A stretch of 64,000 nucleotides of DNA from Burkholderiales bacterium (GTDB taxonomy: Bacteria > Pseudomonadota > Gammaproteobacteria > Burkholderiales > SG8-41), in NCBI GenBank assembly GCA_030683105.1, contig JAUXMZ010000075.1:17545-81544 (forward strand), in the 5' to 3' direction. Positions 44,299-59,433 of the stretch are shown here, one piece after another (position 1 is the first letter of the stretch; every line of letters begins with the position of its first letter). Made by a program: the position numbers and the translations under genes. Below the pieces are notes generated by a model that worked only from the letters and a program-made list of their open reading frames with translations, was not told the origin of the DNA and did no database searches.

Positions 44299-45399
44299 TT
44301 ATAATCGTATTGAAAACACGGAAATCGTCTCCATTAAGCCGCGCAATTCCATATTGCCGCGCGGTACGACGCGGCTTGCGGGCACCAGCTTGCGGATCGA
44401 CTCGAAGAGTTCGCCCGAAACCAGGGCCTCGCCCGCCACTGCTGCCTGCATGAGGCGCGAAGCGATATTCACCGTGTTGCCGATCACGGTGTAGCTCATG
44501 AAATTCGGCGAGCCTACGTTGCCGATGACGGCCTCGCCGCGGCACATCCCGATGCCCAGGCCGCCGGTGATGTCGTAGTGTTCGCGCCAGCGTGCCGCCA
44601 CCGACCCGAAGCGCGACTGCATCTCCTTGGCGGTGGCCCAGGCGCGCGCCGCGGCATTGGGCTGCGGAAAGGGCACGTTGAAGCCCACGAGCAGGCAGTC
44701 CCCTGACATATTGAAAATCGTGCCGTCGTAATGGTGAGCCGCTGCGGTGAGCGCCGCGAAATACTCGTTCAGCATTTCCACGAGCGGTTCCACGTCGATT
44801 ACCTCGGTCATGTGGGTAAAGCCGCGCAAGTCAGCGAACATGACCACCACCTCGGCGCGCTGCGCCTTGGCGCCGAATGGCACGGTTTCGCTGATGATGC
44901 GTTCGACCAGGCGCGGCGAGACATAGCGCGAGAACGCCTTCTGGATCGACTCGCGGTGCGCTGCCGCCGCGAGCGTGTTTCTCATCCGCAGCGCCAGTTC
45001 GCTGGGGTCGACAGGCTTGCGCAGAAAATCGGTCGCCCCGAGATCAAGTGCTCTCAGCTTTGTTTCTGGATCCTCGGCGGTAGTAAGGACGATGGTCGGA
45101 ATGTGTTTCAGCACAGGGTCTTTCTGCATCTCTGCAAGTACGTCAAAGCCGGTTACCTTCGGCATATTGATGTCGAGCAGCAGGACTTTGGGACGCTCGC
45201 GCCGCAGCATGGCGATGGCGGAGGTGGAGTCCGAGGTCGACGTGAACCGACTGAATCCCGCCTGCTCGAGAAATGCCTGGGTGAGCTCGATCACCAGCGC
45301 CTCGTCATCGACCATCGCCACGAGAGCCTCGCCCAGATCGCCCAGGTTCATGCTCCCGGATTGGAGCAATACTTCGTCCGCTTTTATTGGTTCGCTCAT
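44299..45399 (-). CDS. Response regulator receiver - class III nucleotidyl cyclase
   Basis: REC (VDDE, LLLDINMP, KP) plus cyclase (FADLRGFT, GDC, GNTVNIASRL). Confidence 0.93.
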   Translation of the reverse strand: MSEPIKADEVLLQSGSMNLGDLGEALVAMVDDEALVIELTQAFLEQAGFSRFTSTSDSTSAIAMLRRERPKVLLLDINMPKVTGFDVLAEMQKDPVLKHIPTIVLTTAEDPETKLRALDLGATDFLRKPVDPSELALRMRNTLAAAAHRESIQKAFSRYVSPRLVERIISETVPFGAKAQRAEVVVMFADLRGFTHMTEVIDVEPLVEMLNEYFAALTAAAHHYDGTIFNMSGDCLLVGFNVPFPQPNAAARAWATAKEMQSRFGSVAARWREHYDITGGLGIGMCRGEAVIGNVGSPNFMSYTVIGNTVNIASRLMQAAVAGEALVSGELFESIRKLVPASRVVPRGNMELRGLMETISVFSIRL

Positions 45400-45421: not shown

Positions 45422-47917
45422 TCAGGCGACCGCCGATGTCTCCTGCGGCGCGATGACGCGCCGTGCCATTTGCCGCAATTCACCCAGGATCTGTGCCACC
45501 CGCTCGCCTTCGGCGGCCTTGGCGGCGGTCTCGAGCTGCACGGCCGGCGCCATGAACACATCGTAACCCATGGAACCCGCGGACCCCTTGAGCCAGTGGG
45601 CAAAGTTCGCGATCTCCACGTAGTCGTTCTGCGATTCCATCTGCTGCGTCTCGACGAGCCGCTCGTGCAGCCTCACCACGAACTTGCGCAGGATAGGCTG
45701 CAACCGCTTCTGTCCGGCTAGGCGAGACGTGATGGACGTTACCGCTGTGTTGTCGGCGTTCGCCTGCGGCGCGTCGACTGTCGAGTTGATGGCGCCCTCA
45801 GCCGCCGCCGGATCAATGCGTTTACCGCCCAGCAGCAAGGCTATGCTGCGGATCAGCCCATCGATGTCGATAGGCTTGGTCAGGTATACGTTGCAGCCCG
45901 CCTCCATCATCTGGGCTTCAAATCCACTCATGGCATTCGCGGTCAACGCGACGATCGGAATCTTTATGCCACGCTCGCGAAGCGTGCGGGTCGCGGTAAA
46001 ACCGTCCATGACCGGCATCTGCATGTCCATGATGATGAGATCGAATCCGCCCTTCATGGCCATCTCGACGGCGACCTGGCCGTTCTCGGCCTCTTCCACC
46101 CAGAGGCCCTGTTGCGAGAGCACCAGCGACACCAGCTCGCGGTTCTCGGCGCCGTCGTCGGCGATAAGAACCCGCGCCGGGGGAATGCTCCAGCACTCCT
46201 TCACCTCGGCCATGTCTTCGTCAAGATGGGCATCGATCTGCTCGGGTGTGAGCATCGGCACGCCTTCCAGCGGCCCCGTCTCGAAGGTCACCGTAAACAC
46301 GCTGCCCTTGCCCACCTTGCTCGCCACGGTGACATCGCCGCCCAGCGCCCGGGCAAACTTTTTGCTGATCACCAGCCCCAAGCCCGTGCCGCCGTATTTG
46401 CGCGAGATCGAGCTGTCGGCCTGCACGAAGGCCTCGAACAGCGCGCCGATACTCTCCTGCGGAATGCCAATGCCGGTGTCGATGACGTCCAGCGCATAGT
46501 GCGGTGAATTGCCCGGCAGGAACCGGGCACTCACCCGTATGCCGCCGTGATCGGTGAATTTGATCGCATTGCCGAGCAGGTTGAGCACGATCTGGCGCAA
46601 CCGCAGCGGATCGGACCGGACCGTTTGCGGCACCGGGCCTTCAGCGGCAAACCCGATGCTGATCATCTTCTCGCGCGCCCTGACCTCGAATTCGCGCACC
46701 GCCTGGTTCACGATCGTATGCGGCGCACAGGAAATAAGCTCGACTTCGAGCCGCCCCGCCTCCACTTTGGACAAGTCCAGAATATCGTTGATCAGCGCAA
46801 GCAGGTGCGTACCGCTGTTGTATATGGTGTTGAGGTGCTTGGTCGTCTCGCGCTCGTTCTTGCCGAAGCCCCGCCGCAACAACTCGGTGAAGCCGAGTAT
46901 CGCGTTCATCGGGGTGCGGATTTCGTGGCTCATGTTCGCAAGAAATTCGCTCTTGGCACGATTTGCCGACTCGGCTTCGTCGCGAGCGAACTTGAGCTCG
47001 ACCTCTTTTTTCTCGAGTTCGGTAATATCCTCCAAACTGATCAGCACGCCGCCGGGTTTGCTGCCGGCGCCCAGCACCGGCGAGCAGTTCAACAGAAACG
47101 TGCGCAGGGTGCCGGCAGCATCCTTAAGACGTATGGTCTCGTTGCGCTGTATCGCCGCGTCGTTCAGCGCCTTTGTCCATGGATAAACCACTGCCTCGCC
47201 CGCGGGCGTTGCCGTGGCCCAGGGAATGGCGGCCACGCCGGTGCCGAGCATCGCTTCCGAGGATTTCCCGAGGAGATGGGCAAAGGACTCATTCGCCAGC
47301 ACGATGTTCTGGTTCCGGTCGATGATCAGCAGGCCCTCGGTCAGGGTATCGAGCGCCGCGCGCACGCGGCCCGGGATCGCGCGCGACGGGTCCAGTTGGC
47401 GCAGCACGCGACCGAGATAAAAATAAAACGCAGTGAGGCACAGCACGAAGATGAAGGCCAACAGCAGGACGCCGGGCCATTCCAGGATGCCGCGAATCCC
47501 GGGGCTGATCAGGGGCTCGTAGCGCATCTCCAGCTGGCCCCAGCGGTGCTGCTCGGCCCAGATCGGCACCACGAGCTGCGTATCGGTAGAGAGGCCGCCT
47601 TCCATCGGTTCCCAGCGCGTTGCGTGCTCGCCTGTCACGACGACGATGCGCCCGTCGCGGTCGCGCACCGCGATCGAGAGGATCTCCGGATTGCGAGCCA
47701 TGACGAAGCGCAGCACGGATGCAAGTCGTCTTTCCTCTTTAGTGGTCATCAATGCTGTCGCACTGGCAGCCAGGGATTCTGCCAGGCTCACCCGCGCGTG
47801 GCGTTGCGCGCTCAGGCGGTCCGGAACGAATCCCAGCAGCATGGCGAACACCACCGCAGTGGTCACGATCGCGGTGAGGCCAATCGCAACGTGCATTTTA
47901 GTGCTGAATATTTTCAT
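45422..47917 (-). CDS. Hybrid sensor histidine kinase (TM-PAS-HisKA-HATPase-REC-Hpt)
   Basis: [44 protein letters not shown] and Hpt AHWLKGSAG motifs. Confidence 0.95.
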
Positions 47918-50900
47918 GTGCGCTTCGCGTCTACGGGGACCTCGGAAAAAGATGCGATGGCCTGTTCGTCTTCCTCACTGGTTTCGTCATCCTCGTCATC
48001 CACGCGCGCGAGTATCGGCAGCGGGTCGAGCAGCCGCCATGCCGGAAGGGCCGAGAGCATGCTTGCGGCAAGCGCGCCACCGCGGATGAGCCAGATCACA
48101 TAGGCGGCCGTCATGCTGAGGCTGCCGGCGGTGAGCGTGGCGATGGTACGCGTCTGGATTTCGTCCTGCTCGCGCAGACTGTCCTGCAGGCGCGCCAGGT
48201 CGACGCCGAGTCCCACCGCGCCAGCCAAACGTCCCTGTTGTTCGCCCAGTTGGAAAAGATCCAATGGCCGCACCTCGATCTGTTTGAGGACGTCGGCAAT
48301 CAGTTCGCGTACTACCTCTGCGCCTGGCGCAGCAATCCCGTAGGTCTGGAGCCGGTACTCTGGAAGTCCGGCACTGGCGGCGAGCATCTGCAGGCTGCCG
48401 CCGATCGATGCAAAAACCGAGCTGTTCACGGCCAGGGGCAGGAATTCCGCGTCTATCGGCAAAGATGTCCCGCCAGCGGGCACAACCGGGCGGCCTGTAG
48501 TCGAGGCCGGCTGAGACTGCTGCGGCGCGTTGCCCCCGGCTTGCGGGGTAACGACCACTGTCGCGCCGGGCGCGGCCGGAGAGGCGGATTGCTGCGGGCT
48601 GGTGCTCGGCGGGAGCAGGTCGACAAGCGTAATAACGCTCACGGCGAGGGCATGCGTGACGACCGGAGACGACGCGGCGCCGTCGCTCAGCTCAAAGCTC
48701 ACCGTGCGGGTTCCGTTGAACGGCACCGCGCTCGCATTGGAATAGGTCACCGCGCGCAGCGCAGCCTGCCATTGCGCCAGTGTCGCCGTCGCGCCCGCCG
48801 AGTTCAGGCTCAGCGCCCCGCTCGCGGCGTTGTAACCGCCGGCAATGTTGCCCATCGTCGCCGGGTTGTTGGTGAAGCCGAGCGCGTCTTCCGCGGCCCG
48901 GAATCCGGCGCCGATCGAAACCGTCGCGCTCGCAAGCGTGACGTTGTCAAGATCGGCGACCGCCACATTGTCATCCACGAGTATCGGCACGCCCGCCGTG
49001 ATATAGGTCGCCGTACCAGGGCTTGCCGTCACGACCGGCGCGTCGTTCACCGAGGTGACAGCCACCGACTGCGTCGAGGCCGCCGAACTGCCTCCCTCGC
49101 CGGTCACCACGACGCTCACCGTGCGAACCGCGGTGCTGGGCATATCGCTCGTATTGGTATAGGTCACCGAACGCAGCGCCGCCTGCCACTGCGCGAGCGT
49201 CGCCGTCGCACTGGCCGAGCTCAGGCTCAGCACCCCGGTCGCGGCGTTGTAGCTGCCCGAGATGTTGCCCATCGTCGCCGGGTTATTGGCGAAGCCGAGC
49301 ACATCTTCCGCGGCTTGCCAGCCGGCGCCGATCGAAACCGTCGCGCTCGCGAGTGTCGTGCTGTCCGGATCGCTCACCGTCACCGCGTCATCGAGAACGA
49401 CCGGCGCAGACGCGACGTTGTTGCCTTCAGTGAAGGCCGTCGTCCCGCCGCTCGCGGTCACCGTCGGCGCGACGTTCGGCAAGACCGTGATGGCCACCGC
49501 GTCCGAATCCGAGAGAGACCCGCCGGCCCCCGTATTGCCTAGGTCGCTGCTGGTAATCGACAACGACGCCGCGCCGCTGTAGTTGGCACCCGGCATGAAG
49601 CTCAGCCCGTTCAACGCTGCGTTGATCGCCGTGACCGTGCCGCTGAAAGTCATCGCGCCATCCGCGGTGCCATCACCCGCACTGAAAGTCAGTCCGGCGG
49701 TGCCTGCCAGGGTGATGTCGCCGTTGGTACCGTTCAAGGTGACCTGCACGGAGCCCGCGCCGGCATCGGCGTCCCCGACGGAGATCGCGTTGCCGTTGCC
49801 CACCGAGAAAACCAGCGCAGAGTCCTCGTTGGCCGACTGCGCACCGGGCACCGCGTTGACCGGCGCGTCGTTCACCGGGGTGACCGTCACCGTCGAGGTC
49901 TGCGTCGCAGCCGTCAGTACTCCGTCATGGGCCAGCACCGTCACCGCGCGGCTGACCGTGCTCGGCGCCTCACTGATGTTGGTGTACTGAATCCCCTGCA
50001 GAATCGTCTGATAAGTCGCCACCGTGGCCGGCCCCGTGATCGACAGCACCCCGCTCGCCGCCGCGTAGCTCACCGTCAGCCCCGCGCCGCCCGTCGCCGC
50101 CGCCGCATCGAGCGCGAGCGACTCCACCGCGTCGCCATCGGGGCGCGCCGTCAGTGTCACGATCAGCGAGGCGAGGTTCGCCGAATCCACGTCCGCCAGC
50201 GTGCCCGCCGGCGCAATCAGCACCGGCGTCTGCTCGGTGAACGCCACCGTCACGTCCTGGCCCGCACTTCCAGCGTTCAGATCCACCACCGGCGCATCAT
50301 TCACCGCCGTCACCGTGATGCTCGAAGTCTGCGTCGCGCTCGGCGTGGTCCCGTCGCTGGCCACTACCGTCACCAAGCGGTCAGTCGTGGTCGGCGTCTC
50401 GCTCGTGTTGTCGTATCGAATGCTCTGCAGGATCGACTGATAGGTCGCCACCGTGGCCGACCCCGTGATCGAGAGCACGCCGGTGCCGGCCGTGTAGCTC
50501 ACCGTCAAACCGCCCGTCACCGTCGCCGAGAGCGACTCCACCGCGTCGCCGTCGGGCCGCGCCGTCAAGGTCACCGTCAGCGAGGCGAGGTTCGCCGAAT
50601 CCACGTCCGCGAGCGTCGCCACCGGCGCTATCAGCACCGGCGTCTGCTCCGTGAACGCCACCGTCACGTCCTGGCCCGCACCGCCCGCGTTCAGATCCAC
50701 CACCGGCTCGTCGTTCACCGCCGTCACGTCCACCGTGATCGCGTTCGGCGCCGCAGCAAACGCGTTCGCCTGGTCACGCACACTGAACGTGAAGCTCGCG
50801 TAACCCACACCGTTGCCGTTCAACCCCGGCTCGAACGTCAGGTTCGGAATGCTCGCTGCCGTGATCACCTCTGTCGCCGTCACCGCCACGCCCGAGAGCT

Positions 50901-53034
50901 TCAGCGTGCCCGCGCCAGGCAGCGCGTCAATGCGCACCGCACTCAGGCTGTCTCCCGCATCCACATCGCTAAAGCCGAAGTCCGCCGCACTGAACACGTA
51001 GGCCGTGTCCTCGTTCGTCGTCACCGCCTTGTCCGCACCCGTGGGCGCGTCGTTCACCGCCGTCACGGTAATGGTCATCGCATCCGTATCCGATTGGGCG
51101 CCACCGGTGCCCGTGTTGCCCTGGTCGTTCGTCGTGATCGACAACGACGCCCCGCCGTTGAAGTTTGCGGCCGGTATGAAGCTCAGCCCGTTCAGCGCGG
51201 TGTTGATCGCCGCCACCGTGCCGGTGAAGGTCATCGTGCCATCCGCCATGCCGTCGCCGACACTGAAAGTCAGCCCGGCGATGCCCGCCAGGGTGATGAC
51301 ACCGTTTGTGCCGGTCAGCGCGACCTGCACCGGATTCGTGCCCGCATCGACGTCCGCGATGGAAATCGCGTTGCCGCCGGCCACGGAGAATACCAGCGCC
51401 GTGTCTTCGGCGGTCGACTGCGCGCCCGGTACTGTGTTCACCGGCGCGTCGTTCACCGCCGACACCGTGATAAACGAGAACCGCTCCACGCTCGGCGTGG
51501 TCCCGTCGCTGGCCACCACCGACACGATGCGGTCGGTCGTGGTCGGCGCATCGCTCGTGTTGTTGTACTGGATCCCCTGCAGGATCGTCTGGTAGGTCGC
51601 CACCGTGGCCGGCCCCGTGATCGAGAGCACCCCGGTCGCCGCCGTGTAGTCCACCGTCAGCCCCGCGCCGCCCGCCGCGGCCGTCGCCGCCGCATTCAGC
51701 GCGAGCGACTCCACCGCGTTGCCATCGGGCCACGCCGTGATCGTCGCCGTCAGCGACGCCAGGTTCGCCGAATCAAAGTCGACGATCGTGCCCGACGGCG
51801 CAATCAACACCGGCGTCTGCTCGGTGAATGCCGCCACCTCGTCCTGCCCCACACCCGCCGCGCCGTTGAGATCCACCACTGGCGCAGGGTTCGAGACCAC
51901 ACGGAAGGCTAGGTCCTTCGCGGGCTGCGCGGTGGCGTTAGCGAAGAAGGTACCGCCGGGGTATCCGGGAGAGGCGACTCCCACATAAACGTTTCCCCCG
52001 CCGACGCCCTTGACGCTGACGTAATAGGTCGTGCCGTCGGCGAGCGTCGCCGGCGCGGAAAGCGATACGGACATCCAGGCCTCCGATGTGCCGAGGCTCC
52101 TGCGCGCGACGGTTCCGGTCTCAATAATGCCACTACCGCCGCCAAGACTACTGCGCAGCTCGATGGTAATGTTGCCTCCCGCAGGGCTGACGTTCTTGTA
52201 CAGAACGAGGTCGATCTGGTCGACAGAGTAAAAGCCCGCTCCGCTGGTGTACTTGAACGACTGACTCCATGTGCTGCCGCTTCCGGAAATCTCGTAGACG
52301 TTGTCGGCCATGCTGGCGAAGGACGGCTCGTAGGACGTCAATACGATGCTCGGCAGCAGGTGGGACCAGGCGTCCTGCTCGCTTACGCTCAGCGCGACCG
52401 GCACGTCGATCGCACCGGTTGCATATTCCAGTTTCCAGTCGCCGCCCAGGCTCGTATGGCCGGTCGCGTCGTCCGAGGCGGCGACATCAGCCCCGGTCAG
52501 GCGCGCGAGCGTATCGGCCAGCAGCCGTCCCTGCGCCGTTGCCGCGACATCGCAGCCGTAAAGGAGGATATCGGCGTCCGCGGTCAGCGCCTTCGCCCAG
52601 CTTTCGACCCGGTCCGGATTGCCTTGAAGCGAATCGGCCGTGACCAGTTCGTTGCCCAGCTGGATGACGCCGTCGCCGCCGTGGCCGATGATATGCAGCG
52701 CAGCCACGTTCTCGCGGCCCGCGAGCGCCTCGGAGATCTGCGCCAGTCCATCCCGGCCGGCATCGAGCATGACGACATCGACCTGGCGTCCGCTTTGCGC
52801 GGTGATGTCCTGGACGAGAAGCGCGTAGTCAGGCGTGCGGGCATCGATGAATACAATTTCATGCGGGGCGTTTTGCACCGCCTGCTCGTTCTGGGCCGCG
52901 AACTCGAGATGGGGATCGACGACGCGTTGCTCCGCGGCGCCCGGCCCGACCACCGCCGAGGCCAGCAGCGGACCGAGATCCGCCGAGTACAGGATCCGTG
53001 GCTCGAGTGATTCTATGGTCGGGCGCTGGCGCAT
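47914..53034 (-). CDS. 1706-aa surface/adhesin-like protein: LEPR-XLL motif, DUF4347, Ig/cadherin-like repeats, C-terminal membrane anchor
   Basis: N-terminal [10 protein letters not shown]; DUF4347 (VFID...LHIIGHG...LLYGC...GGDWKLE); repeated VNDAP units; C-terminal YVIWLIRGG...[14 protein letters not shown] plus acidic tail. Confidence 0.9.
48625..51882 (-). repeat. Intragenic tandem domain repeats (order A-B-C-A-A-B-D-D)
   Basis: A ([20 protein letters not shown]) at about 51451-51882, 50299-50706 and 49870-50292; B (DAPVN.VPGAQS) x2; D (ATVSIGAG...NNPATMGNI) x2. Copies share long DNA identities. Confidence 0.88.
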
Positions 53035-53882
53035 TATCGTTTAGGATCGCGTTCTGCGACGGGGGGGTTGGCGTCGACACCGAGGTCGACCTTGCAACGC
53101 GGCCCGGCTGGCAGCGAGTAGTTCGGATTCGGCAACTCGAGCCTGATCCGGAAGGTATTGCTCGGGCCATCGATGATCGAATCGACCAGCACCACTTTCG
53201 CCTGCCTGGGCTTGGCGTTGGGCAGCTCGGGTGTGACCGTGAGCGACGAACCGACCTTTATGGTGCCGTAGAGCGACGCGGGAATGACGACTTCCACCCG
53301 CAGGGGATTGGTGGTGGCGACGCGCACGATCGGCTTTTCCTCGACCCGCTCGCCCCCCGACATGTAACGCTCGACGATGACGCCATCGGCCGGGCTGCGT
53401 ATGGTCCGCAGCTCGAGCTGCGCTTCGGCGAGTTGCAGCTCGCGTCCCCAGATGCGGCGCTGATCCTTCGCCTGCACCAGCCGCTGTTCGGCCACCTCGG
53501 CTTCCGCGCGCGCCTGCTCCAGCGCCTGATCGGAGATGAATTTTTTGCTCACCAGATCCTGGGCGCGCGCAAGCTTCTGGCGCGCGAGCTCGTAGTTCGA
53601 TTGCGCGGCCTGGATTTCCGCCGACACCTTTGCCCGGCTGGAAGCGACGCCCACTGCAGCCCGCTCGACATCGGCGCGCAGCATGGCAACGACCTGGCCT
53701 TTGGCAACGCGGTCGCCACGCTCGACCTTGACCGCTTCCACTACGCCGATGACCGGGCTGCCGACATCGACCATGCGAGACGGTTCGATCAGGCAGCCCA
53801 GCGGCTGGGCGCCGCTCACCCAGGGACTCGCTGCGCTGAGGAGTGCTGCAAAACCTATTCTTGCTGCGCTGCGCATAGTCAT
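53034..53882 (-). CDS. Membrane fusion protein (HlyD/RND adaptor family)
   Basis: Signal peptide; VGSPVIGVVEAVKVERGDRVAKGQVVAML, IRSPADGVI and SNTFRIRL motifs. Confidence 0.9.
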   Translation of the reverse strand: MTMRSAARIGFAALLSAASPWVSGAQPLGCLIEPSRMVDVGSPVIGVVEAVKVERGDRVAKGQVVAMLRADVERAAVGVASSRAKVSAEIQAAQSNYELARQKLARAQDLVSKKFISDQALEQARAEAEVAEQRLVQAKDQRRIWGRELQLAEAQLELRTIRSPADGVIVERYMSGGERVEEKPIVRVATTNPLRVEVVIPASLYGTIKVGSSLTVTPELPNAKPRQAKVVLVDSIIDGPSNTFRIRLELPNPNYSLPAGPRCKVDLGVDANPPVAERDPKR

Positions 53883-55840
53883 CTGCTTGATGTCCCCATC
53901 ATCGGTTCACGATCGAACGCCTCGTCCTGCAGGCGCAGCTGAAGGCGCAGCCGGTAACGCCGTCGCCCCTCCCACCATAGTGCCACACGCGCGAGCAATA
54001 TCCCCACCCAGCGCAGGCGCAATTCCCCTGCCCGTCCTGCCCAACCCGTGATGAACGCCGGCAGGCACGCGACGACCGGCGCCGACTCGAGCGACAGCAG
54101 CGTTTCGCAGCTTCCCGCCTCGCCCCGCCTTGCGCAACGCCCCGTAAACTGGCGGTCGATGCGTCGCGAGGCATTCGCCTGGCACAGCATCACGTGCAGC
54201 CCGCCGGCTCGGGCAAGACGTTCCGCGATCGCAATGTCGGTGCCCCGGCCCGCCATGTTGGTAGCCACGGTGATGCGCCCCGCCTGTCCAGCCGTGGCGA
54301 TCACGTGCGCCTCGTGCCGGTCCTGGCGCGCATTGAGCACGACGTGCGCGAGACCGGCAGCACCCAGGTGCTGCGACAGCACCTGCGAATCGGCCACCGA
54401 GTCGGTGCCGATGAGTGCGGCACCGCCGCGCGCCTGAATGTCCCGCGCGCGCGCCACGACGAAGCGCCACCGCGCTTTATGCGTGCCGAACACCCGGGTC
54501 GGAAGCACCACCCGACGCGAAGGTTGCCGCAGCGGCACCCGCAGCACCGGCACGCCATAAACCGCGCGCAGTTCCGCTCGCGACTCGATGAGCGTTCCGC
54601 TCATGCCGCACAGGTGCAGGTAGCGTGAAAAGAAACGTTGGTAGGTAATCTGCGCGGCTGTCACGAGCTCCGCGCTTGGCCGGCACCCTTCCTTGAGTTC
54701 GATGAACTGGTGCAGGCCGCGCGACCACGCGCGGCCAGGGGCAACGCGCCCGCTCGTGTCGTCGATGATGTGCACAGCACCATCGCGCACCAGGTAGTGA
54801 TGATCGCGATGAAACAGATGAATCGCGGCCAAGGCCATGCTTAAGGCTTCCTCACGGTAGCGGCGGACGCGCCACAGGGTATCGCCATCGGTCGACTGGG
54901 TTTCGGCCTTTGCGCGGCCATGTGCGGTAAGTTCAACCGCCCGCGATTCGGGATCGGTAACAAAGTCTTCGCGCGTGATCAGGCTGCGCGCGAATGCCAG
55001 AGCTCGCGTGTAATGCTCACGTTTGCCGCGATGGTCCTCGGCGCGCGAAAGAACGAACGGCACGCTGGCCTCGTCGAGCAGCACGCTGTCGGCTTCGTCC
55101 ACGATCGCCATGCACAAACCGCGCAGCAGCGTGGCAGGCGCGTCCGGGGTCGCCATGCGATAAGCCCGGCTGCGCAGCTCGCCTTCGACATCACGGCGCA
55201 AGAGACTGTCGCGCAAATAGTCGAAGACCAGTTCCTTCGCCGTGCAATATGTCACCGCGCAGCGGTACGCGCGCCGGCGCGCATCCATATCGAGCTCCTG
55301 CGTCACGACCCCGACATCCAGCCCGAGCGCGCCGAAGATGGGCCGCAGAGCGTCAGCGTCCCGCCGGGCGAGGTATTCGTTTGCGGTGATGACATGGACC
55401 GGTACTCGGGCGAGCGCAGCGGTAGCCGCCGCCAGCGCCGCCGCCAGCGTCTTACCTTCGCCGGTCGGCATTTCAACCAGGCGACGGTTGAGCATGGCGC
55501 GAGCGGCGATCATCTGCCCGGGGTACGGCCGCTGTCCCGTCTGGCGATTCGAGATCTCGGAAAAGAGGGCAAATGCCGCCACCTGCAGGTCGTCCGCCAA
55601 CCCGCGGCGCGCGAACTGCTGGCGCACCCTGTGCACTTCGCTTGCACACTGTTCCGTAGACAAACGAATCATTGCCGGTTGCAGCGCCTCGACGGCGCGC
55701 AGGAAAGCGGCATGGGGCGGCACGCGGTTGGCAACTCGCGCTGCCCGGCGCGCGAGCCAACCGGCGCCATTGCCGCGCCGCTCGGGATAATGGCCCCACA
55801 GCACCCCCGGAATAGGCAGTTCGGCTGATCGCATGTTCAT
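53879..55840 (-). CDS. Secondary SecA-like (SecA_DEAD) ATPase lacking the C-terminal scaffold/wing domains (653 aa)
   Basis: EMPTGEGKT, VITANEYLARRD, DYLRD, VDEADSVLLDEA, GMSGT, ATNMAGRGTDI and RRIDRQ..GRCARRGEAG; the protein ends about 60 aa later. ATG 55840 overlaps the upstream TGA. Confidence 0.9.
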   Translation of the reverse strand: MNMRSAELPIPGVLWGHYPERRGNGAGWLARRAARVANRVPPHAAFLRAVEALQPAMIRLSTEQCASEVHRVRQQFARRGLADDLQVAAFALFSEISNRQTGQRPYPGQMIAARAMLNRRLVEMPTGEGKTLAAALAAATAALARVPVHVITANEYLARRDADALRPIFGALGLDVGVVTQELDMDARRRAYRCAVTYCTAKELVFDYLRDSLLRRDVEGELRSRAYRMATPDAPATLLRGLCMAIVDEADSVLLDEASVPFVLSRAEDHRGKREHYTRALAFARSLITREDFVTDPESRAVELTAHGRAKAETQSTDGDTLWRVRRYREEALSMALAAIHLFHRDHHYLVRDGAVHIIDDTSGRVAPGRAWSRGLHQFIELKEGCRPSAELVTAAQITYQRFFSRYLHLCGMSGTLIESRAELRAVYGVPVLRVPLRQPSRRVVLPTRVFGTHKARWRFVVARARDIQARGGAALIGTDSVADSQVLSQHLGAAGLAHVVLNARQDRHEAHVIATAGQAGRITVATNMAGRGTDIAIAERLARAGGLHVMLCQANASRRIDRQFTGRCARRGEAGSCETLLSLESAPVVACLPAFITGWAGRAGELRLRWVGILLARVALWWEGRRRYRLRLQLRLQDEAFDREPMMGTSSR

Positions 55841-57978
55841 GCCACCGGGTTGAAATGCTTGAGGAAGAGCTGGCGCAGGCGGCGATACCACTGCCCGGCC
55901 AGCGGTTCGGAACCCAGATCGAAGCGCACCCACACGCGCTGTCCGAGGCTGCGCAATGCTTCGCCTTGCAGTTCGAGATCAAAAAGGAACACCGGCTCCA
56001 GCGTCCGCATCCCTTCCTTGTCGGCGGGATCCGTGGCGTGGCGGCCCCCGCCGCGTTCGCCAAGCGCGGGGCTGGGAAGCGCATGAGCGGCGGCAGGCGC
56101 CGCACGCTCGAGCCGGGCCGGCATCGGCGATCCCCGTCCTGGCAACAGAACTTCAGCGCCGCGGCTGCTGGCACGCAAAAGGGGCGCACTCTCGTTGGGG
56201 ACGACCGCGCGAACGGCCGTGGGTGCCGAGCTCAGGATATAACCCAGCATCGCGCCTTTTTTCAAGAAGGCGCCTGGCAGATCCTCGCTGTGCGGCAGGA
56301 CCAGCTGACCCGTCACTTTGCTGCGCACGGTCAAATAACCGATGCGCTCCTCGATGCGTTCCAGTTCGGACTGCGCGCGGACCAGCTCCTCGGTCACGTT
56401 TTTCGCTTGCGCCGGGTCGCTCAGCAGCGACTGGTAGCGCTGCGCCTCCAGGGCCTGCACGCGCGAGCGCAAGGCGATGTGCTCGGTCTGAAGCATGGGC
56501 TCGGCAAGCTCCACCAGCGGCGTCCCGGGGTGGACGACTTCGCCTTCGCGTGCCAGAACCCGCAGGACAAAACCCTCTGTTTCCGCTCTGACCTGTGCGC
56601 GCTCGGAGGGCCATACCACCCCTTGCACGAGCAACATGCTCGGAAACGGCACGGCAAAAACCAGCACCAGCGCGCCCACGCCACCCAGTGCAGAGAAGAG
56701 CGCCGCGCGCCGTCGCGCGCGCCCCAAGGGCAGCGCGCTGAGCAACGATTGAATGGTGATGAACGCCGGGCGGATCACCATGGATACCAGCACCAGCGCC
56801 GCCGCCAGCCAGCCCAGCCATTCCGATTTGCCGCCGAGCCAGAGGATCAACGCCAGTGCCAGCGCAAGGCGATAAGCAAGCGAGGCCGGCGCGTAGAAGA
56901 GCAGCCATTTACGCTCGTGGCGCGTCATCACGGGCGCCGATGCCCGGTCCGTGCCGCCGAGCAACCGCAGCGCGAGATATGTCCAGTACGACTGACTGCG
57001 CACGGCAAGGTTGGGCATGTCCAGAAGATCACAGAACAGGTGATAGCCGTCGAAGCGCAGCAACGGGTTGCCGTTGAAAAGGAGCGACGACGCGCCGCAC
57101 AAGAACAGCGTCACGAACGCAACGTCGCTCAGCAGACCCGGTTCAACCTCGAGCCATAACCAGAGCGCGACCACCCCAAGGCCGAGTTCCACCATGATCC
57201 CTGCCGCGCTGACAGCCGCCCGATGCCAGCGGTCGCGAAAGGCGTTTGCCGCCGAGGCGTCGACATAAGGTGCCGGCATGAAAAAAAGGAAGGTCACGCC
57301 CATCTCGCGCACTTCGCCACCCCCTCGCCGCACGGCGATGGCATGCGCCAACTCGTGCAACCCCTTGATGACGGGGTAGCAAAACCAGGCGAGGATGAGA
57401 TAGTACGTCGTCGACATGTATTTCGCAGCGTGTGCTGCAAGCGCACTCCAGTTCATGGCGACAGCAACCACAGCCATTACCACTGCGGCCGCCCAAAGTG
57501 CCAGCGTTGTCGGGCGCAGCAGCGGACGCAAAGCCGGCTCCAGACGATCGAGCAGGCTCGACGGATCGAAAAGCGACACGGGAAAAGCCAGCGGGTTCAC
57601 CCATGGCCGACGGTTGCGCGCGCGCTTGGCACGCTCACGGAAAAGACCGGCGATATCCGGCGTGGTCTCGAACTGCACGAGCTCAGCCTCGCTCAGCCGC
57701 GAGAGGATGCGCACCACCTCGTCCTGCGTCGGCGCATCGTCGCCGAATTTTTCCAGGAGCAGCGTCCACACCTGGTTGACCGACGTGCGGCCATCGAGGC
57801 GCCCTATGAGTTCGTAGGCCGGTCGGTTGATCCGGTTCTGCCGCCCATCGGTTCCGTTGATCAACAGATACCAGGCCTCGCCTTGATAGATCTGTCGCTG
57901 CACACGCACAGCAGCCCGCAGCCGCGGATGCAAGTCGCTTACACGGTACCAAAGCGGGCTGAAGAGCGATTCGGCCAT
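55837..57978 (-). CDS. PqqD/RRE-like domain - M50 (site-2) metallopeptidase - MFP-like fusion
   Basis: N-terminal RLDGRTSV..V...L...DEVVRILSRL (PqqD-like); HELAH and NPLLRFDG (M50 Zn ligands); multiple TMs; biotinyl-lipoyl/coiled-coil MFP region. Confidence 0.85.
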   Translation of the reverse strand: MAESLFSPLWYRVSDLHPRLRAAVRVQRQIYQGEAWYLLINGTDGRQNRINRPAYELIGRLDGRTSVNQVWTLLLEKFGDDAPTQDEVVRILSRLSEAELVQFETTPDIAGLFRERAKRARNRRPWVNPLAFPVSLFDPSSLLDRLEPALRPLLRPTTLALWAAAVVMAVVAVAMNWSALAAHAAKYMSTTYYLILAWFCYPVIKGLHELAHAIAVRRGGGEVREMGVTFLFFMPAPYVDASAANAFRDRWHRAAVSAAGIMVELGLGVVALWLWLEVEPGLLSDVAFVTLFLCGASSLLFNGNPLLRFDGYHLFCDLLDMPNLAVRSQSYWTYLALRLLGGTDRASAPVMTRHERKWLLFYAPASLAYRLALALALILWLGGKSEWLGWLAAALVLVSMVIRPAFITIQSLLSALPLGRARRRAALFSALGGVGALVLVFAVPFPSMLLVQGVVWPSERAQVRAETEGFVLRVLAREGEVVHPGTPLVELAEPMLQTEHIALRSRVQALEAQRYQSLLSDPAQAKNVTEELVRAQSELERIEERIGYLTVRSKVTGQLVLPHSEDLPGAFLKKGAMLGYILSSAPTAVRAVVPNESAPLLRASSRGAEVLLPGRGSPMPARLERAAPAAAHALPSPALGERGGGRHATDPADKEGMRTLEPVFLFDLELQGEALRSLGQRVWVRFDLGSEPLAGQWYRRLRQLFLKHFNPVA

Positions 57979-59433
57979 CTAGACTCCCAGGGACCAGGTC
58001 ACGAGGCGCAGCCACTCGATCGCGCGATGCGTTGCGATCCAAAGCACGGAGCGCTCGCCGGTGGCGACTTTGGCAACGCCGCGCATCCCGGGTCGCAACA
58101 TGTTGCCCGGCGTATCAAACACCCCCTCCACCTCGAAGTAATTTCGTCCCTCACCCGCCACCGCCATGGGCAGAATGCGGCTCACGCGAAACCCGTGCGT
58201 CTCGCCAGGCGTCGCGGCTATCGCGAGGCGACCGGGGAGTCCGGTCCGCAGTTGACCAACATCGCGCTCGTCGACTTCGACTATCACGCGGAAGCGCTCA
58301 TCCGGCGCCAGCGTCATGAGGACTTCGCCGCGCTGCACTGGCGCACCGAGCGACTGCGAAAGATCGCCCTTGATCACCACGCCGTCGAACGGTGCCCGGA
58401 TCTGCGCACGCTGGATGTGGTTATTGACCAGCGTCAGCTGCGCCTGCGCCTCTGCCGCCTTCGCATGATGGATCACAAGCTGCGTTCTGTCTGACCGTGC
58501 AAGTGCCGCCCCGTAAAGGTTCTCTTCCTGCGTCAGCTCGCTTTGGCGTTTGGCGCGTTCAGTCTGCAGGTCACGCTGGGATAACTCCGCGATGATCTCG
58601 TCTGCGTGCACCTTGTCGCCGGGACGCACATTGACCTGTTCGAGGAAACCGTCGATCGGCGCCGCCACGATGCGCTGAATGAAGCCTTCAAGGCGTGCCG
58701 GCGCGCTGACGTGATAGGACACGGGGACAAACATTGCGGCCGCAACAGCAACGACGGCCAAGCTCGCCAGTCGCGTACCTGCACGGGCCGATCCGGCGAT
58801 ACGGGTGGCCGACGCACGCCAGTCATCAAGCGCGACCCTCAAAAAGGCGCGCTGGCTCTTTCTTTTCAATTCGAGCAGCGGCGCGAGCAGGCAGGCAACG
58901 TCCTCGCTAAACGCGACATCTGTTCGACTGAACACCTCGCCTGCGCGCTCCAGCGTAATGGCACCGACGGCGCGTCCGGCATCGACCAGGGGAACGGTAC
59001 ACACGCCGCCGCCGAGCAAGGCATGCACCTCGCTATGGGCAAGGGTCACCGACAAACTGGAAGCGTCCTCGGGCGGCAATACAATAGTGGTCGCCTGCTC
59101 TATCGACTCGTCCATGGCGGCGCCGATTTTCTCGAACAGAGCATGGCGGCGGTCGAATTCAGCACCATGCGAGGTCGCAATGACACGAATGGCACCGCGC
59201 TCGAGCCAGCCTACCGTGACCCGGTCGCAACGCTGCGCTTTCGCCAGTTCATTGGCGAGCGAAGCGGCGGATTGCGCCAACCCCTCCTGGGACAGCACAG
59301 CCGCCTGCACCTCGAGAATGACTCCCGCCGCCGTTATCGAACCGGCAGCCCGTTTTTTATTCGGCTCCATGGGAAGTTCGTTACGCATATTCCATGCCAG
59401 TTTTGGGGGCGATGGTTTTTCAAAGCTCGACAA
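57979..59433 (-). CDS. GAF domain - membrane fusion protein (HlyD family)
   Basis: GAF (CDRVTVG...VCTVPLVDAGRAVGAITLER), TM helix, VAAPIDGFLEQVNVRPGD, IRAPFDGVV. Start may be 59388 or 59370. Confidence 0.87.
   Translation of the reverse strand: MSSFEKPSPPKLAWNMRNELPMEPNKKRAAGSITAAGVILEVQAAVLSQEGLAQSAASLANELAKAQRCDRVTVGWLERGAIRVIATSHGAEFDRRHALFEKIGAAMDESIEQATTIVLPPEDASSLSVTLAHSEVHALLGGGVCTVPLVDAGRAVGAITLERAGEVFSRTDVAFSEDVACLLAPLLELKRKSQRAFLRVALDDWRASATRIAGSARAGTRLASLAVVAVAAAMFVPVSYHVSAPARLEGFIQRIVAAPIDGFLEQVNVRPGDKVHADEIIAELSQRDLQTERAKRQSELTQEENLYGAALARSDRTQLVIHHAKAAEAQAQLTLVNNHIQRAQIRAPFDGVVIKGDLSQSLGAPVQRGEVLMTLAPDERFRVIVEVDERDVGQLRTGLPGRLAIAATPGETHGFRVSRILPMAVAGEGRNYFEVEGVFDTPGNMLRPGMRGVAKVATGERSVLWIATHRAIEWLRLVTWSLGV
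59385..59399 (-). promoter_or_regulatory. Possible sigma54 -24/-12 element
   Basis: Minus strand TGGCATG-GAAT-ATGC with correct GG-N10-GC spacing; overlaps the uncertain N-terminus of the first operon gene. Confidence 0.25.

Follow-up and report, generated by a model that had tools for sequence, protein, structure and literature searches.

The window analysed here, a stretch of 64,000 nucleotides from contig JAUXMZ010000075.1 of a Burkholderiales bacterium (assembly GCA_030683105.1), carries on its minus strand a gene for a SecA paralogue of 653 amino acids (aa), which we call the short SecA. Judged by its motifs, it is a catalytically intact, motor-only SecA. It belongs to a family of secondary SecA_DEAD proteins described by Kamneva, Poudel and Ward (PLoS One, 2015; PMC4452313), which are encoded together with GAF-HlyD, Peptidase_M50-HlyD and HlyD proteins and sometimes with an OEP. 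That study, computational, without experiment and with no substrate named, proposed that the SecA domain stands in for an ABC transporter as the ATPase, with the M50 protein as the pore; the idea of SecA as the energiser is therefore already published as a hypothesis. Our analysis supplies the likely cargo of the system and its tag. In our assessment, the chances are about even that the short SecA is the cargo-clamping motor of a machine that bypasses SecYEG.

The short SecA is encoded by the third of seven coupled genes. Translation starts at the ATG at 55840, which forms an overlapping ATGA with the upstream gene's stop. A longer GTG frame reaching to 55933 overlaps the upstream gene, and the homologue alignment favours the ATG at 55840 ('M..RSAELPIPG' start). 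The stop codon overlaps the start of the downstream HlyD gene, again as ATGA. Pfam recognises SecA_DEAD at residues 42-424 (E 5e-83), the preprotein-crosslinking domain (PPXD), and P-loop_SecA, which is the second nucleotide-binding domain (NBD2), from residue 446 (446-539 and beyond, E 1e-35); the same scan found no SecA_SW (PF07516). In addition to the Walker A and DEAD-box motifs, the protein contains an SGT motif at residues 414-416, motif V (TNMAGRGTD) at residues 527-535 and motif VI (RRIDRQFTGRCAR) at residues 559-571. All residues of an active DEAD/SF2 ATPase, namely the Walker A Lys, the DEAD Glu, motifs III and V and the motif VI arginines, are thus present in the translated sequence and invariant in the clade of the window's protein. 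Walker A residues T126, G127, E128, G129, K130 and T131 are invariant across the active clade, and all catalytic residues are invariant in 43 homologues of the window's clade, down to 48% identity, suggesting selection on ATP hydrolysis. Translation and Pfam bear out a first-pass annotation of this DNA, which had reported all the ATPase motifs and the preprotein-crosslinking region in a protein that stops at 653 aa. The NCBIfam SecA and SecA2 models match the protein only to model position ~490-550 of roughly 760-810. Its score is 459 bits against canonical SecA cut-offs of 800 and 814 (TIGR00963 / NF009538), and 312-419 bits against SecA2 cut-offs of 725-1100 (TIGR03714, TIGR04221, TIGR04397, NF012136), below all of them.

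The short length is the norm of the family. The 120 best homologue matches in a large protein collection are 48-89% identical to the window's protein and nearly all 620-675 aa long; SecA_SW occurs in none of them, and the C-terminal tail is conserved among the homologues. The first-pass annotation had named full-length homologues as the finding that would overturn its reading, and these lengths dispose of that objection. The housekeeping SecA of the same genome is encoded on another contig, is at least 899 aa long and shares 33% identity with the short SecA. The source sample is a groundwater metagenome, and an independent assembly of it is identical over 51038-57629, so the end of the gene is not an assembly artefact, and the ATGA overlap at the stop leaves no space for a decayed C-terminal half. 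The idea that a full-length SecA has been cut short here, by pseudogene decay or by an assembly artefact, has nothing in its favour except the short length. We rejected this explanation on the length kept in at least 120 homologues, the conserved tail, the next gene beginning at the stop and the identical second contig, and we assign it virtually no probability. A SecA2/SecY2 accessory system was also rejected, on the single SecY of the genome and on the scores under the SecA2 cut-offs; exactly one SecY and no SecY2 are encoded. A soil run labelled 'METAGENOMIC RNA-Seq' contains contigs of 238-295 nucleotides that are 1-2 letters off the short SecA gene (window 54785-55673). Soil harbours a nearly identical strain, in which the gene may be transcribed, although the label of the library is uncertain and contigs gauge expression poorly.

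Alignment of the family to housekeeping SecA defines what the short SecA lacks. Homology to B. subtilis SecA ends at residue 543 of that protein, the end of NBD2, which corresponds to residue 586 of the short SecA. Further on, residues 604-642 align with the start of the scaffold helix in the genome's housekeeping SecA, and a conserved 'PW' tryptophan (W611) is common to both; W611, R632 and L635 in this C-terminal helix are conserved among the homologues. Beyond this stub, the protein has no further scaffold helix, no wing, no two-helix finger and no C-terminal linker/zinc finger, and within NBD2 an insert of ~30 residues present in the housekeeping SecA is missing. The first-pass annotation had denied the protein any SecY-engaging C-terminal half. 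This holds for the wing, the finger and most of the scaffold, but a stub of ~35 scaffold-helix residues is kept, and the protein runs on a little beyond NBD2. The N-terminus differs as well. A family-specific motif, LPxPGxLWGxYPER, stands where the canonical lipid-binding N-terminal helix would be and is unrelated to that helix. Its residues P11, G12, G16, P19 and E20 are invariant in the 43 homologues, and its YPE[RK] core is retained even in the most divergent and ATPase-dead members. The motif is a candidate docking peptide. Both this YPER peptide and the stub helix are docking candidates because they have replaced the SecY- and lipid-binding parts of SecA.

An AlphaFold2 model of the short SecA, built on the 43 homologues, predicts the tail as a single helix (residues 610-643, pLDDT about 80) and the N-terminal 30 residues as unstructured, with pLDDT below 45 at the N-terminal motif. 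Foldseek searches with this model returned SecA structures exclusively. The best match is B. subtilis SecA 1tf5 (TM-score 0.70), and the others include SecA2 of C. difficile and M. tuberculosis and the E. coli SecA-N68 truncation 5k9t. Structure prediction and superposition, which had been put forward as a check on the first-pass annotation, are consistent with a SecA fold.

The genes around the short SecA recur with it. The order GAF-HlyD, PqqD/M50-HlyD, short SecA, HlyD and giant LEPR-XLL/DUF4347 protein was found almost without exception in 80 related loci. These loci are mostly from Betaproteobacteria and also from Gammaproteobacteria and Acidobacteriota, and they include Thiotrichales, Moraxellaceae, Terracidiphilus and one deltaproteobacterial metagenome-assembled genome (MAG). 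Across the order, sampled evenly with 301 genomes, the short SecA is present in 37, and every one of these 37 also has M50-HlyD (Fisher p 3e-33). The two genes are direct neighbours in 43 of 45 cases, with the remaining two at contig ends. M50-HlyD and DUF4347 also co-occur in this sample (odds ratio 54, p 2e-27). Three HlyD-domain proteins are encoded in the window's operon according to Pfam and NCBIfam. No ABC domain was found in its seven genes, nor in the related operon genes scanned with Pfam. The first 400 residues of M50-HlyD match an NCBIfam model for an HExxH intramembrane protease of daptides, a class of ribosomally synthesised and post-translationally modified peptides (RiPPs), with E 1.4e-46.

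Two neighbouring observations concern single members of this gene set. The signal-like segment of the small HlyD adaptor (53034-53882, minus strand) ends '...VSGAQPLGC'; this Cys could mark a lipoprotein, with an imperfect lipobox. In the deltaproteobacterial MAG (L059:3-9690), a short SecA of 680 aa is encoded directly after a giant malectin/beta-helix/Big_9/cadherin/dockerin protein of at least 1817 aa. It faces a HlyD-OEP pair, and no M50-HlyD gene lies within the 17 kb examined.

The putative cargo is the giant protein encoded at the end of the cassette. In the window it is the sole DUF4347 gene of the genome, and its start codon and the stop codon of the HlyD gene before it overlap (TAATG). 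A LEPR-XLL giant gene follows the cassette in most loci of the window's clade that are long enough to show it. The N-termini of these cargos share a basic stretch followed by the LEPR-XLL motif, with no hydrophobic signal core. Their C-termini share a hydrophobic segment, 'GLSVGYVIWLLRGGVLLSSLLSSLPAWRLVDPLP', followed by an acidic tail. At least one short-SecA genome that lacks DUF4347 has a LEPR-tagged giant protein without this domain, and the common feature of the cargos may be a LEPR-type tag rather than DUF4347. Downstream of one short-SecA cassette (genome G268, L094:2831-18001, plus strand) lies a gene for a protein of at least 5057 aa that has a leader-like motif, 'IEPRVLMS', at residue 37 and no DUF4347. 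The conserved C-terminal segment of the cargos, 'SVGYV(I/L)WL(L/V)RGG.L..S.LSS.PAWR..DP.P' plus the acidic tail, lies at 47914-48240 (minus strand) in the window. It was detected in 11 loci (L004, L006, L007, L011, L015, L021, L022, L040, L043, L062 and L081), and in all of them a homologue of the hybrid histidine kinase begins within about 200 bp downstream. NCBIfam and Pfam match other parts of the window's cargo and not this segment.

In the mechanism we propose, the machine would be built on three HlyD-type adaptors: one with a leader-binding PqqD/RRE and an M50-like membrane domain, one with a cytoplasmic GAF domain and one periplasmic. The giant protein would bear its N-terminal basic stretch and LEPR-XLL leader in place of a Sec signal. 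This leader would be recognised at the membrane complex, where the RRE/M50 module would read and perhaps remove it. The unfolded chain would be held in the PPXD/NBD2 clamp of the short SecA, and ATP hydrolysis would drive it N-terminus first into the adaptor/TolC conduit, with SecYEG bypassed. The YPER peptide and the Arg/Trp-rich stub helix would dock the short SecA on the cytoplasmic face of the membrane complex. A bolder proposal, which we put forward tentatively and hold to be possible rather than probable, is that the system constitutes a distinct, unnumbered Gram-negative route. In this route, the RRE on M50-HlyD would read the LEPR-XLL tag, the motor-only SecA, docked through YPER, would need neither SecYEG nor an ABC pump to thread the cargo, N-terminus leading, into a conduit of three adaptors and TolC, and the C-terminal hydrophobic segment of the cargo would stop or anchor it. 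On this view, a passive cargo clamp would be the original state of the SecA module, or one to which it can return, as the ATPase-dead and SecA-less variants described below would show.

A number of observations weigh against a SecA-driven, SecYEG-independent machine. No known protein-conducting inner-membrane channel is encoded in the operon, and we know of no M50/S2P domain that conducts proteins. A TolC-type (OEP) gene was found neither in the operon nor elsewhere on this contig. Six OEP genes lie elsewhere in the genome and OEP genes occur inside two of the related loci (L088 and L059); the TolC-type channel of the window's machine is probably encoded elsewhere in the genome. The AlphaFold2 model is of moderate confidence only (pLDDT 73, pTM 0.62). 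In M. extorquens AM1, where META1p2402-2399 have the same gene order as the window, exponential-phase expression was confined to the GAF gene (PMC4452313). The relatives of the cassette add further points. M50-HlyD paralogues at 25-30% identity sit in SecA-less operons with DUF4347 cargo; one such operon from a complete genome (L088) encodes no ATPase of any kind, and in 10 of 10 genomes with SecA-less systems the housekeeping SecA is the only SecA. The genome G020 has three cassettes (C2, which is L087, C24 and C27) and two short SecAs. In its L087 cassette, M50-HlyD is followed directly by a small adaptor and a LEPR/DUF4347 cargo, with no short SecA, which may act there in trans or be dispensable. 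In two genomes (G003 and G028), the slot after M50-HlyD holds a SecA-like protein of 644 aa with 28-32% identity to the window's. This protein heads a subclade, comprising at least 25 sequence clusters, in which Walker A, the DEAD Glu and motifs III, V and VI are gone. Its members are 570-647 aa long and retain the length, the N-terminal YPER motif and the C-terminal tail; 23 of them group in a maximum-likelihood tree as a single branch, fully supported and deeply diversified. They look like natural pseudo-ATPases, indicating that the SecA-like fold has a function without the need for ATP hydrolysis. Because the ATPase-dead subclade, the SecA-less sisters and a SecA-less cassette exist, the wider machine can do without a dedicated SecA ATPase, which is an add-on of one branch of the adaptor/M50/TolC system.

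The short SecA may not push at all. It could be a structural cargo receptor, a chaperone or a gate that uses ATP for holding, unfolding, release, proof-reading or assembly control, and the energy for translocation would then come from elsewhere, e.g. from proton-motive force or from folding outside the cell. Consistent with such a role, the ATPase-dead proteins have kept their shared features in the same slot over long branches, DUF4347 cargo is handled by the SecA-less sister systems, and the two-helix finger that the short SecA lacks is the element usually credited with chain pushing. However, the catalytic residues have not drifted in the 43 homologues of the window's clade, which points to selection on ATP hydrolysis, and the PPXD/NBD2 clamp is kept; we regard a mainly structural, non-motor role as rather unlikely. 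Since ATPase-dead and SecA-less relatives exist, clamping of cargo or docking is probably the core role that has been conserved, and pushing by ATP would be an addition that the window's copy has retained. The first-pass annotation had this ATPase energise a translocon formed by its neighbours. For the window, this fits a dedicated paralogue that is locked to M50-HlyD and a cargo without a Sec-type signal; as a general rule for the wider system, it fails on the dead subclade and the SecA-less sisters.

Alternatively, the short SecA might be a helper in the manner of SecA2, which, perhaps jointly with the housekeeping SecA, delivers the giant protein to the genome's one SecYEG, with HlyD/M50/TolC acting afterwards from the periplasm. 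The housekeeping SecA is the sole SecA-type motor available to the SecA-less sister systems. Some tripartite pumps do pick up their substrates from the periplasm. Actinobacterial SecA2 works with canonical SecYEG, and the published tree places the secondary SecA_DEAD clade beside actinobacterial SecA2 (PMC4452313). Against this stands the loss or replacement of the parts that face SecY and the membrane, i.e. the wing, the finger, most of the scaffold and the N-terminal helix. The cargo also has no hydrophobic signal core, and the gene is locked to M50-HlyD and to no sec gene and scores under all SecA2 cut-offs. We therefore consider a SecA2-like helper unlikely.

The machine might also export or process a substrate other than the neighbouring giant protein, for instance a small leader-bearing peptide. 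The M50 fusion resembles the RRE-carrying leader peptidases of RiPPs, as seen in its match to the daptide model. In 13 of the 37 short-SecA genomes the DUF4347 gene is missing, which also counts among the points against the mechanism we propose. The loci of the dead clade have a divergently transcribed methyltransferase of the PKMT type (MethyTransf_Reg + PKMT_2nd), in one case (L085) also tryptophan halogenases, and no adjacent giant gene, and the substrate there may be different, perhaps a modified peptide. On the other hand, the LEPR-XLL giant gene stands after the cassette in most sufficiently long loci of the window's clade, and in the window it overlaps the HlyD stop and has no other DUF4347 gene in the genome to compete with. 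We hold another substrate for the window's machine to be quite improbable.

Table. Positions of the short SecA, its parts and the genes of its operon in the window, and of genes in related loci (given with the locus name).
Feature	Position	Strand	Description
Short SecA gene	53879..55840	minus	653 aa; NBD1 + PPXD + NBD2 + scaffold-helix stub
N-terminal motif LPIPGVLWGHYPER	55778..55819	minus	residues 8-21; family-specific
Walker A MPTGEGKT	55448..55471	minus	residues 124-131
DEAD-box motif VDEAD	55088..55102	minus	residues 247-251; with the catalytic Glu
PPXD	54698..55021	minus	residues 274-381; Pfam PF01043, E 3.9e-25
NBD2	54083..54505	minus	residues 446-586; with motif V TNMAGRGTD and motif VI RRIDRQ..GR
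C-terminal Arg/Trp-rich helix	53912..54031	minus	residues 604-643; first ~35 residues of the SecA scaffold helix
GAF-HlyD	57979..59433	minus	484 aa; cytoplasmic GAF, one transmembrane helix, HlyD adaptor (Pfam/NCBIfam, transmembrane scan)
M50-HlyD	55837..57978	minus	713 aa; PqqD-like (RRE), M50-like HExxH membrane domain (~6 transmembrane helices) and HlyD, fused
Small HlyD adaptor	53034..53882	minus	282 aa; periplasmic HlyD/RND-type adaptor, N-terminal signal-like segment
Putative cargo	47914..53034	minus	1706 aa; LEPR-XLL/DUF4347/cadherin-like repeat protein
Hybrid PAS histidine kinase	45422..47917	minus	831 aa; with REC + Hpt, translationally coupled to the cargo gene
REC + class III nucleotidyl cyclase	44299..45399	minus	366 aa
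SecA-less sister operon	L088:5518-11772	minus	complete genome; HlyD, GAF-HlyD, M50-HlyD, OEP (TolC-like), DUF4347/laminin-G giant
Dead-clade SecA-like genes	L085:6076-8010; L086:7872-9806	minus; plus	homologues P0122-P0198
Dead-clade locus genes	L085:12528-14327; L086:1959-3542; L085:1407-5060	plus; minus; plus	PKMT-type methyltransferase; L085 also two tryptophan halogenases

If the hypothesis published in 2015 is true, the SecA motor has been re-used outside the Sec translocon for a type-I-like export of giant adhesin-like proteins. This would be a new principle for energising secretion across the envelope and a natural experiment on what the SecA motor can do when scaffold, wing and finger are gone. 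From the ATPase-dead and SecA-less variants that occur naturally, the outcomes of a Walker A mutant or a deletion can be predicted. The system is widespread and relevant to secretion biology, and it has cultured carriers: Zoogloea oleivorans Buc, Noviherbaspirillum suwonense DSM 26001, Uliginosibacterium sp. H1 and Aquabacterium sp. CECT 9606, in addition to the tractable M. extorquens AM1 of the 2015 paper. Our literature search found no later paper on the system except a preprint on Omnitrophota (bioRxiv 10.1101/2023.11.21.568195), and only incidental mentions of LEPR-XLL and DUF4347, and a review that it turned up (PMC8277102) is silent on the system; it found in print neither the link to a LEPR-XLL cargo nor the family-wide YPER motif, the SecA-less sisters or the ATPase-dead subclade.

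Comparison with known systems places the window's gene closest to the secondary SecA_DEAD family. All three features that define this family are found here: a SecA_DEAD protein in which SecA_SW is missing or cut down to a fragment, a conserved locus with GAF-HlyD, M50-HlyD and a HlyD/biotin-lipoyl protein, and a second, not closely related copy beside the canonical SecA. The paper on that family has no PqqD/RRE domain, ATPase-dead subclade or SecA-less sisters, and the window's MAG, of Betaproteobacteria type from groundwater, is not in its data (PMC4452313). With housekeeping SecA (E. coli, B. subtilis; SecA-SecYEG structures 3DIN and 5EUL), the short SecA shares the NBD1-PPXD-NBD2 motor with its helicase-type motifs, at about 31% identity and a TM-score of 0.70 to 1tf5. 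Unlike housekeeping SecA, it has no wing, finger, C-terminal linker/Zn finger or amphipathic N-terminus and only a small part of the scaffold, and its gene does not lie near sec genes. The E. coli SecA-N68 fragment (5k9t) has nearly the same domain content, motor plus PPXD, and matches in structure. SecA-N68 is a laboratory fragment unable to translocate, whereas the short SecA is natural and conserved and has its own N-terminal motif and stub helix. Removal of the C-domain/IRA1 of SecA de-represses its ATPase. By analogy, the natural short SecA may be constitutively active unless a partner restrains it.

SecA2 systems (mycobacterial SecA2, Gram-positive SecA2/SecY2 and C. difficile SecA2, 6sxh) resemble the short SecA in being second paralogues dedicated to certain substrates. 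However, SecA2 proteins keep the scaffold and the two-helix finger and use SecYEG or SecY2, and the window's genome encodes neither SecY2 nor Asp proteins. Type I secretion systems (HlyBD-TolC, LapBCE-LapA) share with the window's system the HlyD adaptors and, where its related loci are considered, a TolC-type channel; in both, the cargo is a giant, repeat-rich protein that lacks a Sec signal, and sensory or cyclic-nucleotide genes lie nearby. In contrast to them, the window's system has no ABC transporter and has three adaptor paralogues, with an M50-like domain and a SecA-like ATPase instead. Its export tag is N-terminal rather than C-terminal, and its cargo ends with a C-terminal hydrophobic segment. 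The giant proteins of Omnitrophota and Actinobacteria contain SecA motor domains without scaffold or wing (bioRxiv 10.1101/2023.11.21.568195). They have the same SecA_DEAD + PPXD combination and a similar tie to giant surface-type proteins, but the motor there lies inside the giant, whereas here it is a separate protein of 653 aa. From canonical SecA, SecA2 and type I secretion alike, the window's gene or operon departs in at least one defining feature.

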